From NCBI GenBank assembly GCA_046290225.1, contig JBKAGE010000078.1, positions 477,049 through 541,048 of the forward strand: a DNA stretch of 64,000 nt, read 5' to 3'. The stretch comes from Bradymonadia bacterium. GTDB taxonomy: Bacteria; Myxococcota_A; Bradymonadia; UBA7976; UBA1532. Under the pieces are notes generated by a model. That model was not told where the DNA came from, searched no databases, and saw nothing but the letters and a program-made list of their open reading frames with translations. Of the stretch, positions 37,268 to 64,000 are shown piece by piece (within the stretch, counting starts at the first letter, position 1; every line of letters begins with the position of its first letter). The position numbers and the translations under genes are program-made.

Positions 37268-39031
37268 ATGTTGCGCCGCCTGTCGTCATCACTCCCCCTG
37301 ATCTTCGCCCTCCTCATTCAGATTTGGGCCACTGCCTGCACCACCAGCGCCGAGCCGCGGTGCAGCTCTGACAGTGATTGTCGCAATGGCTTCATGTGCG
37401 ATCTCGAGCGCTTTGTCGGCGAGTGCGTGCAGATCGTCGAGGTCGAAGCCTGCGGCGAAGCTTTGTGTACTCTGCCAGAGGAGCGTTGTGTCGAAGGACA
37501 GTGCCGCGCGGTGACGCCTCAGGCCGATGCGGGGCTCGTCGACGGTGGGCCGTTGACTGATGGTGGTGTCATCGACGTGGCCGACGCAGAGCCCGGCCCG
37601 CCCCCGATGCCTCAGCTCTTCATCGACAGCCCGGCTCCGGACACCCGTTTCATCGATGCCCGACCGGTCGTTACGGGCACTGTGATCAACCTCGTGTCCT
37701 CAGGACGCCTCTACTTCATTCTCGATGATGGCGTCAGTGGTGATCTGTCCCCCGTAGACGGCCGCTTCGAGGTGGCCCTCGATCTGCCCCTCGGCATTCA
37801 CGACATCACCATCGTCGCCGAGCAGGGCACTCACCGCGCCGAGGCCTCGGTGACCTTCACGCTCAACGGCCGCGTGATTCGTCAGGGGAACCGCCTCACC
37901 CTCGGCGCCCGCCCCTTTCGTTTTCTCGGCTTCTCGGCCCCCGGGCTCCTCGACGGTGCCTGGCGCGACCTCTACGGCGATGACGACGACGAAGTGGCCG
38001 CCACGTTCGACGCCGCGAAGCGCCTCGGGGTTCAGGTCATCCGCGCCCGGGCCTATGACGATCGACCCGAAGCCCCTTCAGTGATCCAACGCAGGCCTGG
38101 CGATCTCTCCGAGGAGGGCCTCGTCGCCCTCGACCACCTCATCGCCGAAGCAGAGCGTCGAGGCCTCAAGCTGTGGCTGGTGCTCTCCACCTATGACGGT
38201 ATCTATGGCTCGGTGGACCAGTACCTGAAGTGGGCGGGCTACATGTTCCCCGAGGTGAGCGATCGCAACCGGTTCTTCGAGGCCGGTGAGATCCGCGAAG
38301 GCTTCAAGGCATACGTGCAGGCCATCGTCGACCGGACCAACTCCGTCACCGGCGTACGCTACGGAGACGATCCCACCATCATGGGTTGGGAGCTCATGGA
38401 GGGCCTCTCCGCCCGCGGCGTCTTCGACAGCGCCGGTGCAGGGGCAGAGCTGCTCGACTTCGTCAGCGATGTGACGCGACACCTCGACGGCCTCACCGAG
38501 GATCAGCTGATCGCCGTGGGCGACGAGGGGCAGGATGTCGATCCTCAACCCTACGGCCTGCTCGCTGATGGTCTGGAGAGCGCAGGGTTGTCCAACTTGC
38601 TCGACGGCACCTTCTCGGTCTCGTGGAGACGACACGTGGGGCTGGGCCCAGTGTCTCTCGCAGGCCTGCACCTGCGCCCTGCCCTGCTGGGTTTTCCGGC
38701 GAACGACGCCGGGGAGACCCTCGGCAGCATCTGGCTCTCGGGTCACAGCCGGGTGGCGGCTCAGGCAGGCCGGCCCACGTTGTTGCTCAATGTGCAGGTG
38801 CCTTCGTGGGATGGCCTCGATCTCGCCAGTCGCCGGGAGATGCTCACCACCTGGCTCGATGAAGTGGTGCGTCGAGAGTGGTCAGGGGCATTTGTCGGGG
38901 GGTTCCACCCTGAAGGGCGCGGAGGGGATGATCCCAATCGATGGGGGATGCGCCCGGGGACCCGCCCGGACGATCCGGCGAACGTGTTCGCCGACATCGT
39001 CGAGGCGGTGGCTGCGGAGCTGAGCCTGTAG
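37268..39031 (+). CDS. Lipoprotein with Cys-rich N-terminus, Ig-like domain and GH5 (mannanase-like) domain, catalytic residues apparently lost
   Basis: 'GLVALDHLIAEAERRGLKL' and 'RTNSVTGVRYGDDPTIMGWEL' match GH5 mannanases; NEP and ExG motifs are absent. Confidence 0.8.
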   Translation: MLRRLSSSLPLIFALLIQIWATACTTSAEPRCSSDSDCRNGFMCDLERFVGECVQIVEVEACGEALCTLPEERCVEGQCRAVTPQADAGLVDGGPLTDGGVIDVADAEPGPPPMPQLFIDSPAPDTRFIDARPVVTGTVINLVSSGRLYFILDDGVSGDLSPVDGRFEVALDLPLGIHDITIVAEQGTHRAEASVTFTLNGRVIRQGNRLTLGARPFRFLGFSAPGLLDGAWRDLYGDDDDEVAATFDAAKRLGVQVIRARAYDDRPEAPSVIQRRPGDLSEEGLVALDHLIAEAERRGLKLWLVLSTYDGIYGSVDQYLKWAGYMFPEVSDRNRFFEAGEIREGFKAYVQAIVDRTNSVTGVRYGDDPTIMGWELMEGLSARGVFDSAGAGAELLDFVSDVTRHLDGLTEDQLIAVGDEGQDVDPQPYGLLADGLESAGLSNLLDGTFSVSWRRHVGLGPVSLAGLHLRPALLGFPANDAGETLGSIWLSGHSRVAAQAGRPTLLLNVQVPSWDGLDLASRREMLTTWLDEVVRREWSGAFVGGFHPEGRGGDDPNRWGMRPGTRPDDPANVFADIVEAVAAELSL

Positions 39032-41737: not shown

Positions 41738-41902
41738 GAGTCTTCCTTCGGCGGGGCGCTGCCCGGACATGAGCGCTCAAAAATTGAAGTCGCACCGTAA
41801 ATTTGTGCTCATGTCTCCCCATAAGTCGACGATGTGCAGAGTGACGCTCGCCCCATAACGCTCAAGGACAGAGCGAGACACGGTTGCACGGAGGCACGAG
41901 AG

Positions 41903-42256
41903 ATGGTGGAGATTCACCTCGAAGAGATCGCCCGGGTCGAGCGCTTGCTCCGGGCGCTCAAGACTGGTCAGAGCAGCACCGACGAGATCACCCGACAGGT
42001 GGTGGCGGTGCCGGCCCTCGCACGGCGGCTCACCCACGAGCTGCGCGATCGCCGCACCAGCGGGCCCTACTCGGTCCGTCGGGCGATCTCCCTGTTGGGG
42101 CTCGATCGAGTCCGCGCCCACATCAAAGAGATGCTCGATCACTGGCTCAACGCCGTGGAGCGCCCTGGTGGCGCCCAGATCATCGGTGATACGCAACAGA
42201 CGCCCATCCCCCGCCACGAGAGCGGGCGACGGCGTCGGTCGAGGCTCACCGCCTGA
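41903..42256 (+). CDS. Small protein resembling the N-terminal half of an HDOD domain
   Basis: 'EITRQVVAVPALARRL...SVRRAISLLGLDRVR' parallels the HDOD pattern DPALxxxLL...SIxxAIxxLG. Confidence 0.6.
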   Translation: MVEIHLEEIARVERLLRALKTGQSSTDEITRQVVAVPALARRLTHELRDRRTSGPYSVRRAISLLGLDRVRAHIKEMLDHWLNAVERPGGAQIIGDTQQTPIPRHESGRRRRSRLTA

Positions 42257-56006: not shown

Positions 56007-56723
56007 ATGATGACGCCTGCCCACCTACTCGCTGTCTCCGCATTGCTCCTCCCGCTCTCCGCAGGGGCGCAAGATCCCGACGACTTCGATCCGATCCTCG
56101 ATGGTCAGGAGAGCCCTTCTGGAGGCTCCGAGCCCATCACCCCCGAGGAGCCCTTCCCCCTCGGCTTCATGATCGGCGCCGGCGGCGGGCTCTACTTCGG
56201 ACGTGTGAAGAGCTACCTCGATCCCGACATCAGTCGCCTGGAAAGCGGTCTGCGTCCCGGCCTCAGCCTGGGGCTATCCGGGCGTACGCGGAGCGGGTGG
56301 GAGATCGGTCTCGAGATGATGGTGGGCTTCGGCCGCACCTTCGAGCCCGACGAGGGCGAGGTCGAGGCCTTTGATCTCATGGTGCAGCCCCGGGTGCTCT
56401 ATCACTTCGTCGAAGAAGAGAGCTACGGCTTCTACGGGGGCCTCGGTGGCACTTTCTGGGGGTTCGATCTCGGCGGCGAGGGCCTGAATCAGGGCGGCGC
56501 CGGGCCGGGTGCGGTGCTGGGCCTCGTCTTCGCCCGAGATCTGCACGGGCACCTCTACCTCGAGCTGGGCACCACCGCCCTCTACGACTTCCTCGCCTAC
56601 CGGTTCGAAGATCCCACAGCGGAGCAGCTGATCGAGGATCCCACCGCGGAGCCGGAGAAGATCGAGGGGGAATGGTTCATCTTGAGCCGGGTGATTCTGG
56701 GGTATCGTCTGACGAACTTCTGA
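56007..56723 (+). CDS. Putative outer-membrane beta-barrel protein
   Basis: Signal peptide, alternating Gly/aromatic beta-strands, terminal Phe. Confidence 0.7.
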   Translation: MMTPAHLLAVSALLLPLSAGAQDPDDFDPILDGQESPSGGSEPITPEEPFPLGFMIGAGGGLYFGRVKSYLDPDISRLESGLRPGLSLGLSGRTRSGWEIGLEMMVGFGRTFEPDEGEVEAFDLMVQPRVLYHFVEEESYGFYGGLGGTFWGFDLGGEGLNQGGAGPGAVLGLVFARDLHGHLYLELGTTALYDFLAYRFEDPTAEQLIEDPTAEPEKIEGEWFILSRVILGYRLTNF

Positions 56724-56994
56724 GGGCCCCCTGTTCGAGCTGACCGGACATCTGCTCCGCAGCTCTCAGGCGTTGTCTGACCCAGCTCCGATTTGGCCCT
56801 GGACCCAGCCTGCCAGGGCCCGCCCGACGGCCAAAGCACGCCCGCGGCTGACGCTGAGGCCCCCGCGTCGGCGGCCCGCGGTGCCAGTGGTCCCCTTCGA
56901 GCCCCAATGACCAGCCCGGCGATCCGCCCCAGCGCTCGGCGACGCTCGAGGCCCTCGGCGGCCCCTGCGCCCAGAATGGTGCGCACCACATCAT
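56677..56994 (-). CDS. Possible small hypothetical protein downstream of recombinase 2
   Basis: ATGA overlap with the recombinase stop; fills an otherwise empty gap of about 270 bp. Composition is weak evidence for coding. Confidence 0.3.
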   Translation of the reverse strand: MMWCAPFWAQGPPRASSVAERWGGSPGWSLGLEGDHWHRGPPTRGPQRQPRACFGRRAGPGRLGPGPNRSWVRQRLRAAEQMSGQLEQGALRSSSDDTPESPGSR

Positions 56995-57965
56995 GCTGCC
57001 TCCTCCCACGACTCGCCCTCGTATTGCTCGGCGAGCCTCAGATAGACCCGGGCGGCGTCGAGGCTCTCCAGGCCCAACAGCTCCGCCAAAGTGACAGGAT
57101 CCTTGAACTTGACCGCATACTGCACCGCGAAGATGTGCCGCAGCACCTGGGGGCTGGCGTCGACGCGGGCGAACTGACCGTGCTTGCGCACCACCCGCTG
57201 CACCGCGTTCGCCGTGAGCGGTCCTCTCTCCCCCACGAACACCGCCTGATGTTCATCTCTCGGCCCCGCGCTCAGAGGCATGGGTGAGGTGATCATCAGC
57301 CGGCTCGCCGGAGGCGAGGGCAGGTCCGGGTCGAGCACGTGGCCCGGGAACCCTCGCTCCATCAGGCTCCAGCCCAGCCGCCACGCCACGCGATCCGAGA
57401 TGGGGATCACACAGCGCCGCCCGGGGATGACGATGCGTCGCGCTGGCAGGTCGAGCTGACCCACGGTCATGCTCACCAGCTCCCCCACCTTCATCCCGGT
57501 GCCCAGCAGCGTGTAGATGACTGCTTGGTCCCGCAGACACCCGTGGGCGTCCACCTGCAGACAGAGCGCCCGGACCTCCGGCGGGCTCAGCAGCTTCGGT
57601 GACCGGTGGGTGGTGGGCAGCGCCTCGATGGTCTTCATGTCGTCACAGACCTCCCTGGCCAGCCACCCCTCCGCGGCGAGCCACTGTGCGTAAGTGCGGG
57701 CAAATGCGAGCCGCCGCGCCGCCGTGGCGCCGCTGCGGCCCTTCTTCAGGGCCCCGTCCCGCCAGGCCCTGATGTGAGCGGCGTTGAGCAGCCCCGCTTC
57801 GAAGGAGGCCTTCTCCACCCGACGAAACCAGCAGCTCAGATCGATCCAGTCAGAGGTGTAGGCCCGGATGGTGGCCGGACGGCGCCCCCGTGCGCTCAGC
57901 TCGTCGACGAACTGTGAAAAGCGCCGCCCCTCAGTCTCCGAGGCGAACGGGTTGTCGATGTCCAT
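56991..57965 (-). CDS. Xer-like tyrosine recombinase paralog 2 with degenerate active site
   Basis: SAM-like N-domain ('ATIRAYTSDW'), RDQA..TGMKVGEL, SPQVLRHIFA, LLGLES...VY; strong AGGAGAGGAG RBS. Confidence 0.88.
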   Translation of the reverse strand: MDIDNPFASETEGRRFSQFVDELSARGRRPATIRAYTSDWIDLSCWFRRVEKASFEAGLLNAAHIRAWRDGALKKGRSGATAARRLAFARTYAQWLAAEGWLAREVCDDMKTIEALPTTHRSPKLLSPPEVRALCLQVDAHGCLRDQAVIYTLLGTGMKVGELVSMTVGQLDLPARRIVIPGRRCVIPISDRVAWRLGWSLMERGFPGHVLDPDLPSPPASRLMITSPMPLSAGPRDEHQAVFVGERGPLTANAVQRVVRKHGQFARVDASPQVLRHIFAVQYAVKFKDPVTLAELLGLESLDAARVYLRLAEQYEGESWEEAA

Positions 57966-58001: not shown

Positions 58002-59411
58002 TCACTGCAGCAGCGACAGGGCTTGCTGTGGCGTCGAGTTCGCCTGGGCCAGAATGTTGTTTGCGGCCTGGGTCAGGATCTGGCTCCGGGAGAGCTGCAT
58101 CGACTCCTCGGCGAAGTCGGCGTCCTGGATCCTGCTCCGGGCGGCGCTGATGTTCTCGCTGGTGGACGACATGGCACGGATGCTGGCGTCCAACCGGTTC
58201 TGCAACGCGCCGAGGCGTCCTCGGCTGGCGTTGATCTCCTCGAGCACTCGATCGACGACGTCGAGGGCGGACTCCGCGCCGAAGCGTGTGAGCACGCTGA
58301 TGGTGTCGAGCCCCTGGGTGACCGTGCGGCCCACCCGGTGATCGTTGGTGAGCCCGATGAAGGTCTCGGCGTTCCCAGTGACCTGGAAGCCCTCCTCGCT
58401 GTCGAGGGTCAGCGTGCCCAGGCTCACATCTGAGGCGCCCAGGCCGGTGATGCCCGCGGCGCCGCCTGCGGTGACCACCTCGATGTTGCGCCCGTCGGAG
58501 GCGTCGAGCTGAATCCGACCGTCGGCATCTCGCGACGCCACCACCCCGGTGCGCTCCACCAGGCTGTTGATGGCGTTGATCAGCTCGTCGCCGGCATCAG
58601 AGGGGCTCACGCTGAACCCGGTGATCTCCTCGCCGTTGATGACGATGTAGTTCGTCTCGTCGAGCACACCACCAGCGGCGACGGCGTTCCCCTCTCTCGT
58701 AGTCTGGTTCACCACCGCCCTCACCCCCGTAAAGTTGGTGAAGTCGTTGATGGCCGCGGCCTTCGAGATGGCCGATCCGGTGGCAAACGAGGTGCTCACC
58801 CCATCGTCCACCGTTTGGGTGGCGCGGATGGTGACGCCATTGATGATGACGTCCCCAGCGGCGATGGCCTGGGTGGCCACCACGTTGCTCGTCTGCACCG
58901 CCCATCGCCCCAGAGAGTCCTGCCGAGCGTCACCGATGCCCACGGAGAATCGCTCACCGAACTCGCTGCCGATTTGCAGGTAGCGATCGATGAAGGTGCC
59001 GTCGAGCAGCGACAGGCCGTTGAAGGTGGTCCGGCGCCCGATGCTCCCGATCTCGTCGATGAGCTGGGTGATCTCGTCCTGAATCGAGGCGCGATCGGCA
59101 TCAGAGTTGATGTCGTTCGCCGCCTGAATCGACAGCTCTCGCACACGTTGTAAAAGATCCGAGGTCTCTTGCAGGGCAGACTCGGCTGTCTGTGCCAGGC
59201 CCACCCCATCGCTGGCGTTGCGCACCGCCCGGTTGAGCCCCCTGATTTGGGTGGTCATCCTGACGACGATGTTCAGGCCCGCGGGGTCGTCTTTGGCGCT
59301 GTTGATGCGCAGCCCGCTGGCCAGGCGCTCGAAGCTACGTTTGAGCACCTGATTCTTGCGCCCCAGTTGACCCATCGCCTGATGGGACGAGGCGTTGTGA
59401 TTGACGATCAT
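58002..59411 (-). CDS. fliC: Flagellin (paralog 3)
   Basis: 'ERLASGLRINSAKDDPAG', 'LQRVRELSIQAAN', 'RGRLGALQNRL', 'SRIQDADFAEES'. Confidence 0.95.
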   Translation of the reverse strand: MIVNHNASSHQAMGQLGRKNQVLKRSFERLASGLRINSAKDDPAGLNIVVRMTTQIRGLNRAVRNASDGVGLAQTAESALQETSDLLQRVRELSIQAANDINSDADRASIQDEITQLIDEIGSIGRRTTFNGLSLLDGTFIDRYLQIGSEFGERFSVGIGDARQDSLGRWAVQTSNVVATQAIAAGDVIINGVTIRATQTVDDGVSTSFATGSAISKAAAINDFTNFTGVRAVVNQTTREGNAVAAGGVLDETNYIVINGEEITGFSVSPSDAGDELINAINSLVERTGVVASRDADGRIQLDASDGRNIEVVTAGGAAGITGLGASDVSLGTLTLDSEEGFQVTGNAETFIGLTNDHRVGRTVTQGLDTISVLTRFGAESALDVVDRVLEEINASRGRLGALQNRLDASIRAMSSTSENISAARSRIQDADFAEESMQLSRSQILTQAANNILAQANSTPQQALSLLQ

Positions 59412-59426
59412 ACTCCCCTCCCATCA

Positions 59427-60857
59427 TTAGCCCTGAATCAGTGAGAGGGCCTGCTGGGAAGAGGAGTTGGCCTGAGCGAGGATCGAGGTGGCGGCCTGCT
59501 GCAGAATCTGGTTCCGAGAGAGCGAGGCCGACTCCACGGCGAAGTCAGCGTCGAGGATGCGGCTCCGGGCCTGAGTGGCCTGCTCCACCACGGTGGTCAG
59601 GTTGCTGATCGTGCTCTGCAGGCGGTTCTGCAGCGCGCCGAGCTGAGCGCGATCCTGGCTCACCTGCGACAGCGCCCGGTCGACGACGAGCAAGGCGAGG
59701 TTGGCGTTGTCTCGGCTCGTCAGGTCGATCTTGTCGAGCACCTGCGCGGTGTTCACACCGACCAATTGTGCGGGGTTGAAGCCGATGTAATCAGCGTTGA
59801 CACCGTCGATCTGGTACTGGTCGTCCGAGGTCAACGTCACTTGCGACAGCGTGACCGACTCGTTGTTCACGCCATCGGTGAGGCCCGTGAAGTCACCGGC
59901 GTTGCCCGTGGCGATGACCTCGATGTTGCGGCCGTCCTGAGCGCGCAGCTCGATTCGTCCCTGCTGATCTTTGATGGCCACGACGCCGGTGATGTCCGAC
60001 TCGGCGTTGATGGCCCTTACCAGTTGGTCGTCGGCGTCGTCCGGGGTCACTTCGAAGCCCAAGATCGTGCGGCCGTTGATGACGATGTTGTTGTTGGTGT
60101 CGAGCACCCCGCCCTGAATCGCCGCCACGCTCTCGCGCACCGTGGGGCTCACGTAGGCGGTGACCCCGTGGTAGTCGGTGCTGTCGTTGATGGCCGAGGC
60201 CTTGGCCACACCCGAAGCGGTGGGCAGCGAAGTCGACAAGCTGTCGTCCGCGGCGTTCGTGGCGCGAATGCTCACCCCGTTCAGGAGCACGTCGCCGTTG
60301 GCCAGGGCCTGGGTGCTCACCACGGCGCCGGTCTGCACAGCGACGCGGCCCAGGGTGCTGGCCCGGGCGTCTCGAATGCGCACCCGCAGGTTCTCTCGGA
60401 AGTTCATGCCGATGTGGAAGAACTGGTCGAGGAAGCTGCCGTCGAGGATCTTCTTCTGGTTGAAGGTGGTGCTCTCGCCGATGCGCTCCAGCTCGTCGAT
60501 GAGCTGGGTCACCTCGGAGTTCATGGCGGTGCGGTCCGACGTGGTGTTCACGTCAGAGGCCGCCTGCACCGCGAGCTCTCGAATGCGCTGGAGAATGTTG
60601 GTCGACTCTCTCAGCGCCCCTTCAGCGGTCTGGGAAAGGCTGATGGCGTCGTTTGCGTTGCGCATCGCCTGGCTCAAGCCTCTGATCTGGCTCGAGAATC
60701 GCTCGCCGATGGCCATCCCTGCGGCGTCGTCGGCGGCGCTGTTCACGCGCAGACCGCTCGACAAGCGCTGGAAGCTGGTCTGAAGGCGGCGGGTCGAGCC
60801 CACCATGTTGCTCTGGGCGTTGAGCGACGAGATATTGGTGTTGACGAACAGACCCAT
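59427..60857 (-). CDS. fliC: Flagellin (paralog 2, most canonical; probable major subunit)
   Basis: 'VNTNISSLNAQ', 'RLSSGLRVNSAADDAAG', 'LQRIRELAVQAA', 'RAQLGALQNRL', 'SRILDADFAVES'; GGAGG RBS. Confidence 0.97.
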   Translation of the reverse strand: MGLFVNTNISSLNAQSNMVGSTRRLQTSFQRLSSGLRVNSAADDAAGMAIGERFSSQIRGLSQAMRNANDAISLSQTAEGALRESTNILQRIRELAVQAASDVNTTSDRTAMNSEVTQLIDELERIGESTTFNQKKILDGSFLDQFFHIGMNFRENLRVRIRDARASTLGRVAVQTGAVVSTQALANGDVLLNGVSIRATNAADDSLSTSLPTASGVAKASAINDSTDYHGVTAYVSPTVRESVAAIQGGVLDTNNNIVINGRTILGFEVTPDDADDQLVRAINAESDITGVVAIKDQQGRIELRAQDGRNIEVIATGNAGDFTGLTDGVNNESVTLSQVTLTSDDQYQIDGVNADYIGFNPAQLVGVNTAQVLDKIDLTSRDNANLALLVVDRALSQVSQDRAQLGALQNRLQSTISNLTTVVEQATQARSRILDADFAVESASLSRNQILQQAATSILAQANSSSQQALSLIQG

Positions 60858-60864
60858 GGTGGTG

Positions 60865-60933
60865 TCCTCCGTGATCTTGTGTTCACCGCATCCATGCGGT
60901 GAGGTCTGTTGAGCCACGCCTCATCCCGGCGTG
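60865..60933 (-). promoter_or_regulatory. Candidate CsrA/RsmA binding sites in the flagellin 2 leader
   Basis: Hairpin TCACCGCA-TGGA-TGCGGTGA (60883-60902), hairpin CACGCC-GGGATGA-GGCGTG (60915-60933), and ACGGAGG overlapping the SD. Confidence 0.65.
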
Positions 60934-60974: not shown

Positions 60975-61205
60975 TCAGGGTCGTGGGCCCCGGCGCTGGT
61001 TCACGTGCTGTGTCTCGGTGCGTCCCTGGCCGGGCCGTCGTGGGCCGCGTCGGGACCAGCCCCGAGTCGGTGGGGCATGCATCAGGTCCTGGATGAGTCC
61101 TTCGAGGTCTCTCACCAGGTCCCTCACTTGCCCCACCAGCCCGGAGAAGGGCCCGGGGGCCATCGGCTCGCGCTCAGGGCCACCCCGCTGTTGGGTGTGG
61201 TCCAT
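60975..61205 (-). CDS. Small hypothetical protein (76 aa) downstream of recombinase 1
   Basis: ATG follows the recombinase stop after a 12-nt gap with a G-rich RBS; one amphipathic helix 'LVGQVRDLVRDLEGLIQDLM'. Confidence 0.5.
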   Translation of the reverse strand: MDHTQQRGGPEREPMAPGPFSGLVGQVRDLVRDLEGLIQDLMHAPPTRGWSRRGPRRPGQGRTETQHVNQRRGPRP

Positions 61206-61217
61206 GGCGCGCCCCCC

Positions 61218-62144
61218 TTATCCTCTCGCCGCGGCGCGCAGGGCGGCCATCCGTGCCGGGGTCTCCGCAGCGCGGCCTCTCGCCGCGGCCTGCTCCAGGT
61301 AGAGCCGGGTGGTCTCCAGCGATCCGTGGCCGAGCAGCTCCGCCAGGGTGTTGATGTCCACCTTGCCCTCCTCGAGGGCCCGCATGGCGAAGGTGTGGCG
61401 CAGGATGTGGGGGGTCACCGTGATGCCCGCCTTGCGGCCGTAGCCGCGCAACATGCGCTGAATGCCGTTCGCCGTGAGGGGGCCGCGCTCACCGAGGAAC
61501 AGCGGGCCGGGGCCGTCGCCGCGAGGCTCGATGAGGTAGGTCTTCAGAGCCCGGCGGGCGGTGCGGCCGATGGGCACCCGGCGGACCGGAGCGCCGGCGG
61601 GGCCGGGGATGTGAAACCAGGCGCGGCGGCTGCCGAGCTCCAGCTGCTCCCGGGTGATCTCCACCAGCTCACCGACGCGCAGGCCGGTCTCGAGCAGGGT
61701 CCAGATGATGGCCCGATCCCGGGTGCTCCCGCACTCTTCCACCACCTCGAGGAGCATGGCCTCTTCGCGATCGCTGAGCCCCTTGGGCTTGCGGGGGTCC
61801 TGAGCCACTGCCGAGAGCTCCCGCACGGCGGCTTCGGCGCCGCCGGTGAGGTAGCCCTGGGCCCGGGCCCAGCGAGCGTAGGCTTTGAGAAACACGAGCT
61901 TGCGGTTCACCGTGGAGGGGGTCATGCCCTCGCCCACCAGGGCCGCCTTGTACTCGGCAGCGGCGGCCTCGGTGATCTCGCTCACGGTGAAGGGGGCCTT
62001 GTAGTGCCCGGCCCACCAGGTGGCCAGCCCCCGCCAGTCGGAGCGGTAGGCTTCCACGGTGCGGGCCTTGCGGCCCCGTGCCTTCAGGTCGGCCTCGAAC
62101 TCGCCGAAGCGGGCCTGCTCCGAGGCGTCGAACATCTCACTCAT
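61218..62144 (-). CDS. Xer-like tyrosine recombinase paralog 1
   Basis: 'RTVEAYRSDW', 'STVNRKL', RDRA..TGLRVGEL, TPHILRHTFA, LLGHGSLETTRLY; AAGGAGG RBS. Confidence 0.93.
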   Translation of the reverse strand: MSEMFDASEQARFGEFEADLKARGRKARTVEAYRSDWRGLATWWAGHYKAPFTVSEITEAAAAEYKAALVGEGMTPSTVNRKLVFLKAYARWARAQGYLTGGAEAAVRELSAVAQDPRKPKGLSDREEAMLLEVVEECGSTRDRAIIWTLLETGLRVGELVEITREQLELGSRRAWFHIPGPAGAPVRRVPIGRTARRALKTYLIEPRGDGPGPLFLGERGPLTANGIQRMLRGYGRKAGITVTPHILRHTFAMRALEEGKVDINTLAELLGHGSLETTRLYLEQAAARGRAAETPARMAALRAAARG

Positions 62145-62254: not shown

Positions 62255-63667
62255 CTACTGCTGCAGTAAGGACAACACTTCTGATCTTCGAGAGTTGGCC
62301 TGGGCGAGCATGCCCAGCCCTGCCTGCTCCAGCACCTGGCTGCGGGCCAGGTCTGCAGAGGCCTTGGCAAAGTCGGTGTCGTTGATCCGGCTCCGGGCCT
62401 CGGTGATTTGCTCCATCTGCCCGGTCATCGTGTCCACGAGGGCCTGCAGCCGGTTCACCACCACCCCGAGACGCGCTCGGTCGGTGGACAGCTCCTCGAG
62501 CACCCGCTCGAGGACCAGAATCGCCTTGTCGGCCCCCTCGCGGCTGGTGAGATCCAGGGTGCTCAGGGCCTCGTCGAGGCTCACCTGCACCTGCTGGTTG
62601 TCTCCGAAACCGATGAAGGCCTCGTTGGCGCCACCGAGCACAAAGTCGCTGTCGCTGTGCAGGTAGAGCTGCCCGGTGACGGTGCTCAGCGCGTCCACCC
62701 CGACGATGTTTCCGGCGTTCCCGGTGGCCTCCACCTGGATGTTCCGGCCGTCGGAGGCGGTGAGGGTCAGCCGACCCTGCACATCGAGGCCAGCGACCAC
62801 CTCACCGTCGAGCTGAGCGTTGATGGCCTTCACCAGGGTGTCTCCAGCGCGGCCCTCGTTCAGGTCGACGACGATGTTCTGCCCGTTGATGACCAGAGCG
62901 TTGTCGAAGTCGAGACGCCCCGGCTGAATGGCGGCGTTGCCCACAAACTCGGTGGTGAGAGGCACGGCGGTGACGCCGTGGTTGCTGGTGCCCTCGTTGA
63001 TGGCGGCGGCCTTGGCGATGGCCGAAGCGGCGGGGAACGCCGTGCTCAGGTCATCGTCGCTGTCGGCGGTGGCCCGCACCACAGCCCCGTTGATGGTCAA
63101 GTCACCATCCGCGAGGGCGTCGAGGGTCACTGCGGCGCCGGTGCTCACGGCCTGTCGACCGAGGTTGGTGGCCCGAGCGTCGCGGGTCTGAACAGCCAGA
63201 CGCTCACCGGCGAAGGCCCCCACCTGAAAGCTCAGGGTGGCGACGCTGCCGTCGAGCAGGTTGCGGCTGTTGTACTGGGCGCCGCCGGCGATGCGGGTGA
63301 TCTCGGCGCTGAGGCTCTGGAACTCGTCGTTGATGTTCTCGCGGTCGATGGCGCTCACGGTGTCGTTGGCGCCCTGCACGGCGAGCTCGCGCATCCGCTG
63401 CACGATGTCGCTGATCTCACCGAGGCTGCCCTCGGCTGTCCGGGCCATTTCCTGCCCCGCGAGGGCGTTGTCAAGGGCCCGGGTGAGGCCCTTGAGGTGC
63501 CCACCGAGCCGAGCGGCGAGGGTGACCCCGGTGGGATCTTCGCCGGCGTGGCTGTTCCGCTCACCGCTGGAGAGCTGCCGAAAGCTCCGGCTCAGGCTCC
63601 GACGATGACCACCGACGGAGCGGGTGGCCCGGAGGCTGGCGCTGTCGGTGTTCAAGTAAAAGCCCAT
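62255..63667 (-). CDS. fliC: Flagellin (paralog 1, divergent N-terminus)
   Basis: 'QLSSGER', 'TAEGSLGEISDIVQRMRELAVQGAN', 'RARLGVVVNRL', 'SRINDTDFA'. Confidence 0.93.
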   Translation of the reverse strand: MGFYLNTDSASLRATRSVGGHRRSLSRSFRQLSSGERNSHAGEDPTGVTLAARLGGHLKGLTRALDNALAGQEMARTAEGSLGEISDIVQRMRELAVQGANDTVSAIDRENINDEFQSLSAEITRIAGGAQYNSRNLLDGSVATLSFQVGAFAGERLAVQTRDARATNLGRQAVSTGAAVTLDALADGDLTINGAVVRATADSDDDLSTAFPAASAIAKAAAINEGTSNHGVTAVPLTTEFVGNAAIQPGRLDFDNALVINGQNIVVDLNEGRAGDTLVKAINAQLDGEVVAGLDVQGRLTLTASDGRNIQVEATGNAGNIVGVDALSTVTGQLYLHSDSDFVLGGANEAFIGFGDNQQVQVSLDEALSTLDLTSREGADKAILVLERVLEELSTDRARLGVVVNRLQALVDTMTGQMEQITEARSRINDTDFAKASADLARSQVLEQAGLGMLAQANSRRSEVLSLLQQ

Positions 63668-63751
63668 GGTGACTCTCCGTATATGACGGGCCCGTTTTTT
63701 CGGGGCCCTCGGGGTTATGCGGTGACCCTCTCAGGGCCTCGCTCACCCACC

Positions 63752-63778
63752 ACATCGTCGGCGTCGGGGCAGACTTCA
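63752..63778 (-). promoter_or_regulatory. Candidate sigma28 (FliA)-like promoter for the flagellin-recombinase cluster
   Basis: TGAAGTCT-N11-GACGATGT versus consensus TAAAGTTT-N11-GCCGATAA (6/8 and 5/8), about 85 nt upstream of the ATG. Confidence 0.4.
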
Positions 63779-64000
63779 GAAAAAAGTGCATTTTTATCGT
63801 GCGGGCTGTCTCAACCCATCGAATTCGCGTGTTTTTTTGTTATCGGGAGAGGCGTATTTTCTTATCAGGCGAGGGGGGTGGGGGTTATCTGGCGGGTTGA
63901 GAAGAGAGTTTTTCGGGCACGGGCACGGACTCTCTATCAATTCGCAACCCCCCTTTTGAGGGTAGGTTTTGTGGTGTAGCGGAGGACAAGCCAAACCAGG

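Follow-up and report, generated by a model that had tools for sequence, protein, structure and literature searches.

A conserved pair of degenerate tyrosine recombinase homologs in a flagellin array of a Bradymonadia bacterium, candidate DNA-binding regulators

The recombinase-fold regulators found in the literature searched are the repressors of SPβ-like phages and FliZ. The phage master repressors MrpR (YopR) and SroF have a two-domain recombinase fold with an eroded catalytic set and bind a repeated element. MrpR is reported to be a repressor that keeps its tyrosine, with Y304 required for stability and DNA binding (PMC10516654), and SroF monomers are reported to bind an operator of 24-26 bp (bioRxiv 2025.11.27.690993). 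FliZ of enterobacteria, a 183-aa protein made up of the core-binding domain only, is also derived from a recombinase and is described as a DNA binder of the flagellar regulon that acts at -10-like sites (PMC3367168). The family presented here was without description in the open-access papers and bioRxiv preprints searched.

In the 64,000-nt stretch of DNA that was analyzed (the window), two recombinase homologs, rec1 and rec2, lie within an array of flagellin genes. On the minus strand, the first flagellin is followed by rec1, a 76-aa ORF, two more flagellins, and rec2. The features of the locus are as follows.

63794-804, 63840-850, 63862-872 and 63885-895, minus strand: four direct-repeat 11-bp boxes with GATAA ends and no inverted partner arm, a candidate operator
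63752..63789, minus strand: sigma28-like promoter (T-tract and -35 block, 14-nt spacer, -10 GACGATGT), conserved in 17/17 loci
63715..63725, minus strand: box within the leader, 3' of the predicted promoter (matrix match)
62255..63667, minus strand: first flagellin of the array (Pfam)
61218..62144, minus strand: rec1, sister paralog of rec2, with R-H-R-H-Y kept here and a hairpin without Lys; its orthologs are degenerate
60975..61205, minus strand: 76-aa ORF directly 3' of rec1, no Pfam family
59427..60857, minus strand: middle flagellin (Pfam)
58002..59411, minus strand: last flagellin of the array (Pfam); rec2 begins 36 nt after its stop
56991..57965, minus strand: rec2, a 324-aa tyrosine recombinase homolog with core-binding and catalytic fold, a degenerate active site and a Pro-rich SPMP insertion
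56007..56723, plus strand: convergent neighbor gene at the right border of the locus, conserved, no Pfam family

Structurally, rec2 has both parts of the tyrosine recombinase fold. Its frame is intact, Phage_int_SAM_1 and Phage_integrase both exceed their Pfam cut-offs, and the AlphaFold model (mean pLDDT 89.8), with core-binding and catalytic domains, matches XerA, IntI4, and XerH with Z of 19-20. The catalytic positions, read from the alignment and also pairwise to XerA and XerD, are altered in four of six cases: Arg-I is K159 (TGMKVGE), His-I is Q273 (QVLR), His-II is L299 (LLGLES), and the hairpin IVIPGRRCVIP is without Lys. Arg-II (R276), Tyr308, and Glu162 are kept. The R-K-H-R-H/W pentad plus Tyr of an active recombinase thus reads K, none, Q, R, L, Y. 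A preliminary description of this DNA had named these same substitutions, with the Arg of HxxR and the Tyr retained, and had proposed alignment to XerC/XerD-type proteins; the pairwise alignments bear it out. The Pro-rich insertion that it had noticed is also present, at about 31 aa (the RG-to-F stretch of "VFVGERG" is 38 aa, vs 7 in rec1 orthologs), and is ordered in the model (pLDDT 84-88). So are the intact ORF and ribosome-binding site, with AGGAG just 5' of an ATG that stands 36 nt past the flagellin stop. The GC3 of rec2 is 0.86, like that of neighboring genes. Two database proteins of 72-77% identity share its K/Q/L set and its length, and the database name of one rec2 homolog is Myxococcales bacterium.

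The loss of catalytic residues is common to the orthologs. None of the 17 rec2 proteins has the canonical R-H-H-Y set; Arg-I has become K in 12 of them; at His-I, 10 have Q and 1 has R; at His-II, 10 have L and 2 have N; and the Tyr is missing in one (from genome G004). The rec1 protein is 40% identical to rec2, and in the window its hairpin is also without Lys, a point overlooked in the preliminary description. Among 16 rec1 orthologs, R-H-H-Y is found once, in a protein without the Lys, His-I is kept once, and Arg-I is K in 6. Any hairpin Lys is present in 3/17 rec2, 5/16 rec1, and 0/6 proteins from rec1-type genes that stand alone (solo genes), never in the same column, and the length of the hairpin varies. 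Arg-II is kept in all ingroup proteins and Tyr in 38/39, and Glu/Asp is nearly invariant.

Despite this erosion, the rec2 frames are intact in 17/17 loci, and same-genus dN/dS is 0.075-0.23 (6 pairs, a seventh being saturated). Values were also obtained for rec1 (0.05-0.27 in 8 pairs, one more saturated), the first flagellin (0.07-0.24), and the solo rec1-type genes (0.09 and 0.36). The pairs share members, and cross-genus pairs are saturated, so these figures do not describe the host genome's own branch. The preliminary description had argued against a decaying pseudogene and had proposed to check whether orthologs carry the same substitutions under purifying selection. Its argument is supported by a degeneration that orthologs share and that selection maintains.

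The further claim that rec2 is catalytically dead stands in part. In a saturation study of Cre, only the Tyr and Lys are reported to be strictly needed; activity in vivo is retained by R173K, the H289Q and H289G mutants also remain active, and W315L is weakly active (PMC2943603). Because each of R>K, H>Q, and W>L is tolerated by Cre on its own, three of the four rec2 changes would be singly survivable. A dead enzyme is therefore suggested mainly by the absent Lys, along with the combination of several changes and the loss of Tyr in G004. Active subfamilies with a shifted Arg-I or a weak His-I exist, and IntCTnDOT is reported to use a shifted Arg (PMC8138268). Retention of the Tyr is compatible with a regulatory role since MrpR, a repressor, keeps its own.

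In both a quick IQ-TREE tree (98 SH-aLRT) and a FastTree tree (0.98), rec1 and rec2 are sister clades that fall among intact non-Xer recombinases. These intact relatives have R-H-R-H-Y plus the hairpin Lys in 128/141 complete rows (a loose test). By this placement, rec1 and rec2 appear to derive from an intact mobile-element recombinase subfamily and not from XerC/D. A helix-J motif, identical in rec1 and rec2, is found in 35/37 ingroup vs 0/123 outgroup proteins, and one core-binding helix differs between the two. The conserved part of rec1 and rec2 corresponds in the alignment to their predicted DNA-facing helices, roles that we assume from Cre and Xer. On separate branches, these catalytic positions read K/Q/L or K/Q/Y in other recombinases, P0124 and also P0051, a case of independent decay along the same path. 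Ten further proteins in the set (P0070, P0074, P0098, P0099, P0111, P0112, P0121, P0122, P0128, and P0135) are 600-750 aa long and contain two complete recombinase units in tandem.

In the genomes searched, the pair was matched in one family. In a single-protein search, rec2 matched 17/27 genomes of the same family and 0/33 outside it, and a profile of both clades at 1e-45 matched 15/17 family genomes and 0/383 others in the phylum sample. At 1e-55, no intact close relative was found among 400 genomes of the phylum. The 19 relative loci that were fetched repeat the arrangement of flagellin, rec1, one to four flagellins, rec2, with the convergent border gene at the end. Their array genes share one strand, with no inverted gene, and alaS lies upstream of the array in most loci reaching that far. 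Two relatives, G004 and G006, have rec2 without a detectable rec1. Among metagenome loci, flagellin is present in 12/12 of the ingroup, some of which may come from the same organisms, vs 0/67 of the outgroup. Elsewhere, scanning named genomes with a single protein gave one match, which was irrelevant, and the ESM Atlas gave generic integrase clusters only.

The link to flagella differs between the two clades. Of the seven family genomes without flagellin, five hold a solo, equally degenerate rec1-clade gene by profile and none holds rec2. Genome G007 has one additional solo rec1-type gene, and the solo genes stand in housekeeping contexts. Strict co-occurrence of the recombinases with flagella, which a single-protein search had suggested (0/7 flagellin-less genomes), was dropped upon the profile result of 5/7. 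Since flagellin-less genomes keep a selected rec1-type gene, the rec1/rec2 clade as a whole is not purely flagellar; flagellum-linked occurrence holds for the rec2 clade, which is found in flagellin arrays only. The border gene is also found in two genomes without flagellin. Three genomes with flagellin (G010, G018, and G025) gave matches at XerC/D only, and they are no test of co-occurrence because they are 70-87% complete and the border gene is missing as well. In three genomes of the same order but another family (G028, G029, and G030), no recombinase was matched at 1e-8 to 1e-20, even at the level of XerC/D, which may be a search miss; each has 9-19 flagellin-domain matches.

The promoter of the first flagellin carries what may be the operator. 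Just 5' of it are 11-bp direct repeats, or boxes, ending in GATAA or CATAA. In the window the five boxes between 63715 and 63895 are spaced 23, 22, 46, and 79 bp; over all loci the spacings run from 11 to 90, many at 13 and 22-26. The box was defined on these same promoters, with only a leave-own-genus-out matrix and one held-out locus (L138) as safeguards. By that matrix, 17/17 first-flagellin promoters have one box or more (27 boxes in sense orientation and 1 in reverse), as opposed to 1/39 internal flagellins, 1/32 rec genes, and 1/24 other flagellins; shuffles gave a mean of 1.3 and a maximum of 4. The match before another flagellin is probably the sigma28 -10 itself, an element that the box resembles. 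With a matrix trained without the window, the five-box cluster is the best of the 8.58-Mb host genome, scoring 54.4 vs 28.3-28.7 for the next independent clusters. Over 146 kb of array interiors and far ends there are 10 scattered box matches, with no second site at the far end, and the 64,000-nt window has no convincing inverted repeats. Upstream of the solo rec1-type genes, a box-like element occurs within 300 nt in 3/6, none on the sense strand at the threshold used for flagellin promoters. In two of the six, which belong to one genus, a pair of GATAA elements directly precedes the gene; a third has a strong box on the opposite strand, a fourth has a weak element, and two have none.

Several other places in the host genome, which is 99% complete, bear similar elements. 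The top matches to a sigma28-like matrix include the array locus, another flagellin, a fliS-like gene, and flgL, the fliS-like label being our presumption from the sequence. At the flgL promoter (G000:C75:227900, L062) a box abuts the -10. A box regulon at flgL was rejected, being limited to the host genome (0/19 relatives); the relatives have flgK and flgL adjacent without such a promoter. At 41798-41860 on the plus strand of the window, a sigma28-like promoter has a box within the spacer and a second one immediately 3' of the promoter, the second-best two-box cluster of the genome. It precedes an ORF (41904-42256; 117 aa, no family) that has no match in 27 relatives and is possibly a lineage-specific target. 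The genome also contains a separate flagellar cluster with three further flagellins and a FliW-like gene, and two FliA-type sigma factors. No FliZ was found in it.

A possible origin for the boxes is offered by the intact relatives, which were obtained from metagenomes (67 loci and 59 distinct proteins, 52 of them with sufficient upstream DNA) and represent near, not sister, branches whose members are kin rather than independent samples. A core of GATAA-N6-TTATC lies 5' of their own gene, perfect in 22/52 and within one mismatch in 36/52, and a 13-bp direct repeat is upstream in 40/52. By comparison, the core occurs in 0.25% of random windows and 0/56 generic phage recombinases. At the flagellin promoters, 0/17 have the 6-bp core within one mismatch and 3/17 have it if 7-8 bp is allowed. 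Active recombinases use a cognate core with two inverted arms and 6-8 bp between; apart from those 3/17, none was found at these promoters or at the far end of the arrays. Six of the 17 promoters have two boxes 13 bp apart, and the place of the right arm is occupied by the promoter T-tract. The outer arm letters and helix J differ between the intact relatives and the flagellin arrays. We infer that the box descends from a resolvase site. Ten further viral relatives were less uniform: one (L238, on another branch) has the same core and repeat, one has another core, and one has the repeat only. A perfect core at C31:1811 was dismissed as it sits in a coding repeat. One intact-relative locus lies beside ArdC.

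Compared with the described systems, these intact simple tyrosine recombinases of mobile elements (P0043/P0064-type, with no named subgroup) are nearest to rec1 and rec2 in the tree and have the same GATAA-ending 11-bp arms and 13-bp direct repeat, but their R-K-H-R-H-Y is intact and their core is complete, with a 6-bp center, and 0/67 stand beside flagellin. We take their plan of a core plus direct repeats to resemble that of TnpI of Tn4430. MrpR and SroF share the eroded recombinase fold, and a repeated candidate operator lies at the flagellin promoter. The rec2 model matches the SroF-DNA structure 9rd5 with Z 16.3 and rmsd 5.4 over 270 residues. Kinship in sequence and the sro operon are absent, however: the MrpR/SroF structures have 11-14% identity to rec2, with Z below those of XerA or IntI4, which argues for an independent origin, and they are not among the rec2 profile matches in the PDB. 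MrpR keeps its Lys and loses both Arg, whereas rec2 loses other residues; the phage proteins are encoded in an SPβ-like sro operon, whereas rec1 and rec2 are a chromosomal paralog pair in a flagellin operon. Unlike FliZ, rec2 has two domains in its 324 aa, and it has no match to the FliZ family (TIGR03823). XerC and XerD are also two paralogs with the same two Pfam domains and 11-bp arms, yet identity with them was rejected: rec2 scores 88-143 vs equivalog cut-offs of 330-335, it does not group with XerC/D but forms a separate clade, and the host encodes intact XerC and XerD besides. At G000:C3 ~38006-38035, a dif-like site with a 6-bp center is presumably the target of XerC/D. Phase-variation recombinases (FimB/FimE, Hin, and flagellin-linked integrases) likewise have a recombinase gene beside surface-structure genes. 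A system of this kind was rejected on the lack of an invertible segment or paired sites and on invertase-model scores of 16-26 vs cut-offs of ~220.

The reading that we favor, and consider probable from sequence comparison, is that rec1 and rec2 are domesticated, non-recombining DNA-binding regulators that act like the phage repressors MrpR and SroF or like FliZ but arose independently. It sets out from what is observed, namely a degenerate conserved pair, its operon position, the promoter, the half-site array, and intact relatives with full cores. An ancestor of the family would have captured a mobile-element resolvase along with part of its binding site. The captured gene would then have duplicated and lost the general-acid Lys, with the other catalytic positions eroding and the DNA-reading helices being retained. 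In the present arrays rec1 follows the first flagellin and rec2 the last, all co-directional behind the sigma28-like promoter, which carries direct-repeat GATAA half-sites and no complete core. Both proteins may clamp these half-sites without cutting and so set the promoter output of their own operon, and rec2, which would be made only together with the last flagellin, could serve as a flagellum-specific late feedback copy. Because recognition helix J is common to both, rec2 may cooperate or compete with rec1 at the same boxes, its insertion providing an extra contact surface. Boxes upstream of the -35 would fit activation, and those in the spacer or leader would fit repression; by analogy we lean toward negative autoregulation since resolvases and MrpR repress from their own sites. 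Of the roles raised in the preliminary description, a FliZ-like DNA-binding regulator is the best reading and has now gained a candidate operator, the role itself being still a candidate one. A directionality factor or inhibitor of recombinase 1 fares poorly. As rec1 is degenerate too (1/16 with R-H-H-Y, and that without Lys), rec2 is unlikely to be its directionality factor, and rec2 is found without a detectable rec1 in G004 and G006 and rec1-type genes without rec2 in five genomes.

The 76-aa ORF at 60975-61205 is possibly a third component of the system. Small ORFs of 50-95 aa also follow rec1 in relatives L034, L037, and L041-L044 and follow the first flagellin in L045 and L046. They encode an amphipathic helix, often with an Arg-rich tail, and their homology is significant among three genera, with no significant homology to the 76-aa copy in the window. 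The leaders of flagellins and some rec1 genes (window ~60860-60900; L033, L036) contain short hairpins with GGA in the loop, which we take to resemble CsrA sites. Long repeat-rich, GC-rich stretches lie between rec1 and the next flagellin in some relatives (L036:8219-10915, L040:9184-12418, and L033:9786-10746).

Alternatively, rec1 and rec2 may be slow or atypical enzymes that still cut, using a hairpin Arg for Lys, and that recombine, invert, or nick at an unrecognized site, for instance in flagellin shuffling. One study reportedly found integrase-driven flagellar phase variation in E. coli, and the arrays differ in how many flagellins (1 to 4) separate rec1 from rec2. Arg-II, Glu/Asp, and Tyr hardly vary, the changes R>K, H>Q/S/G/T, and H>L/N are among those that Cre is reported to tolerate singly (PMC2943603), and IntCTnDOT offers its precedent of a shifted Arg (PMC8138268). 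Such an enzyme is nonetheless unlikely given a hairpin tip without conserved Lys or Arg, several changes combined in one protein, and the Tyr lost in G004, to which are added 0/17 promoters with a complete core, no second site, no inverted gene, and no convincing inverted repeats in the window. At the other extreme, rec2 as a decaying pseudogene could appeal to four of six catalytic positions changed and to saturated cross-genus pairs that leave dN/dS on its own branch unmeasurable. That reading is already refuted at the family level, and for rec2 itself we give it almost no credence: frames are intact in 17/17 loci with dN/dS of 0.075-0.23, proteins of 72-77% identity share K/Q/L and length, and GC3 is 0.86.

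There are two further explanations, both of which we regard as quite improbable. In one, rec2 might work mainly through a partner, as a subunit that poisons or modulates either rec1 or XerC/D, and the paralogs do share one operon and the same helix J with different core-binding helices, rec2 being the more eroded and having an ordered insertion. On the same evidence, rec1 has no activity to inhibit; rec2 occurs without detectable rec1 in G004 and G006, XerC/D are distant, and the regulator explanation already covers competition at shared boxes. The proteins could instead be global regulators or chromosome-binding proteins that are merely co-expressed with flagellin, the boxes belonging to sigma28 or another flagellar factor. 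The solo rec1-type genes in 5/7 flagellin-less genomes and their housekeeping contexts, under selection at dN/dS 0.09 and 0.36, count for this and against the regulator reading, as does the resemblance of the box to the sigma28 -10, and FliZ itself is described as a global regulator (PMC3367168). Against it, the boxes mark the sole flagellin promoter whose operon encodes rec1 and rec2, and they match the site architecture of the intact relatives.

If rec1 and rec2 are indeed regulators, they would be a chromosomal case of a recombinase-fold regulator with a short operator, in which the decay of the enzyme and the conversion of site to operator can both be traced against intact relatives. A more detailed version, which we hold tentatively, is a two-member chromosomal transcription-factor family whose origin can be read from sequence. 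Here a resolvase of plasmid type, together with its site's left half, would have been captured before a sigma28 flagellin promoter, the site becoming a phased operator array that mimics the sigma28 -10. The dead duplicates, a general rec1 and a flagellum-specific rec2, perhaps with the 76-aa ORF as antirepressor, would form a feedback switch. If true, a full-length counterpart of FliZ would have been invented independently in a lineage related to Myxococcota. The locus offers an initial way into the flagellar control of an uncultured flagellated lineage, and it serves as a warning that proteins annotated as XerC/XerD may be transcription factors.
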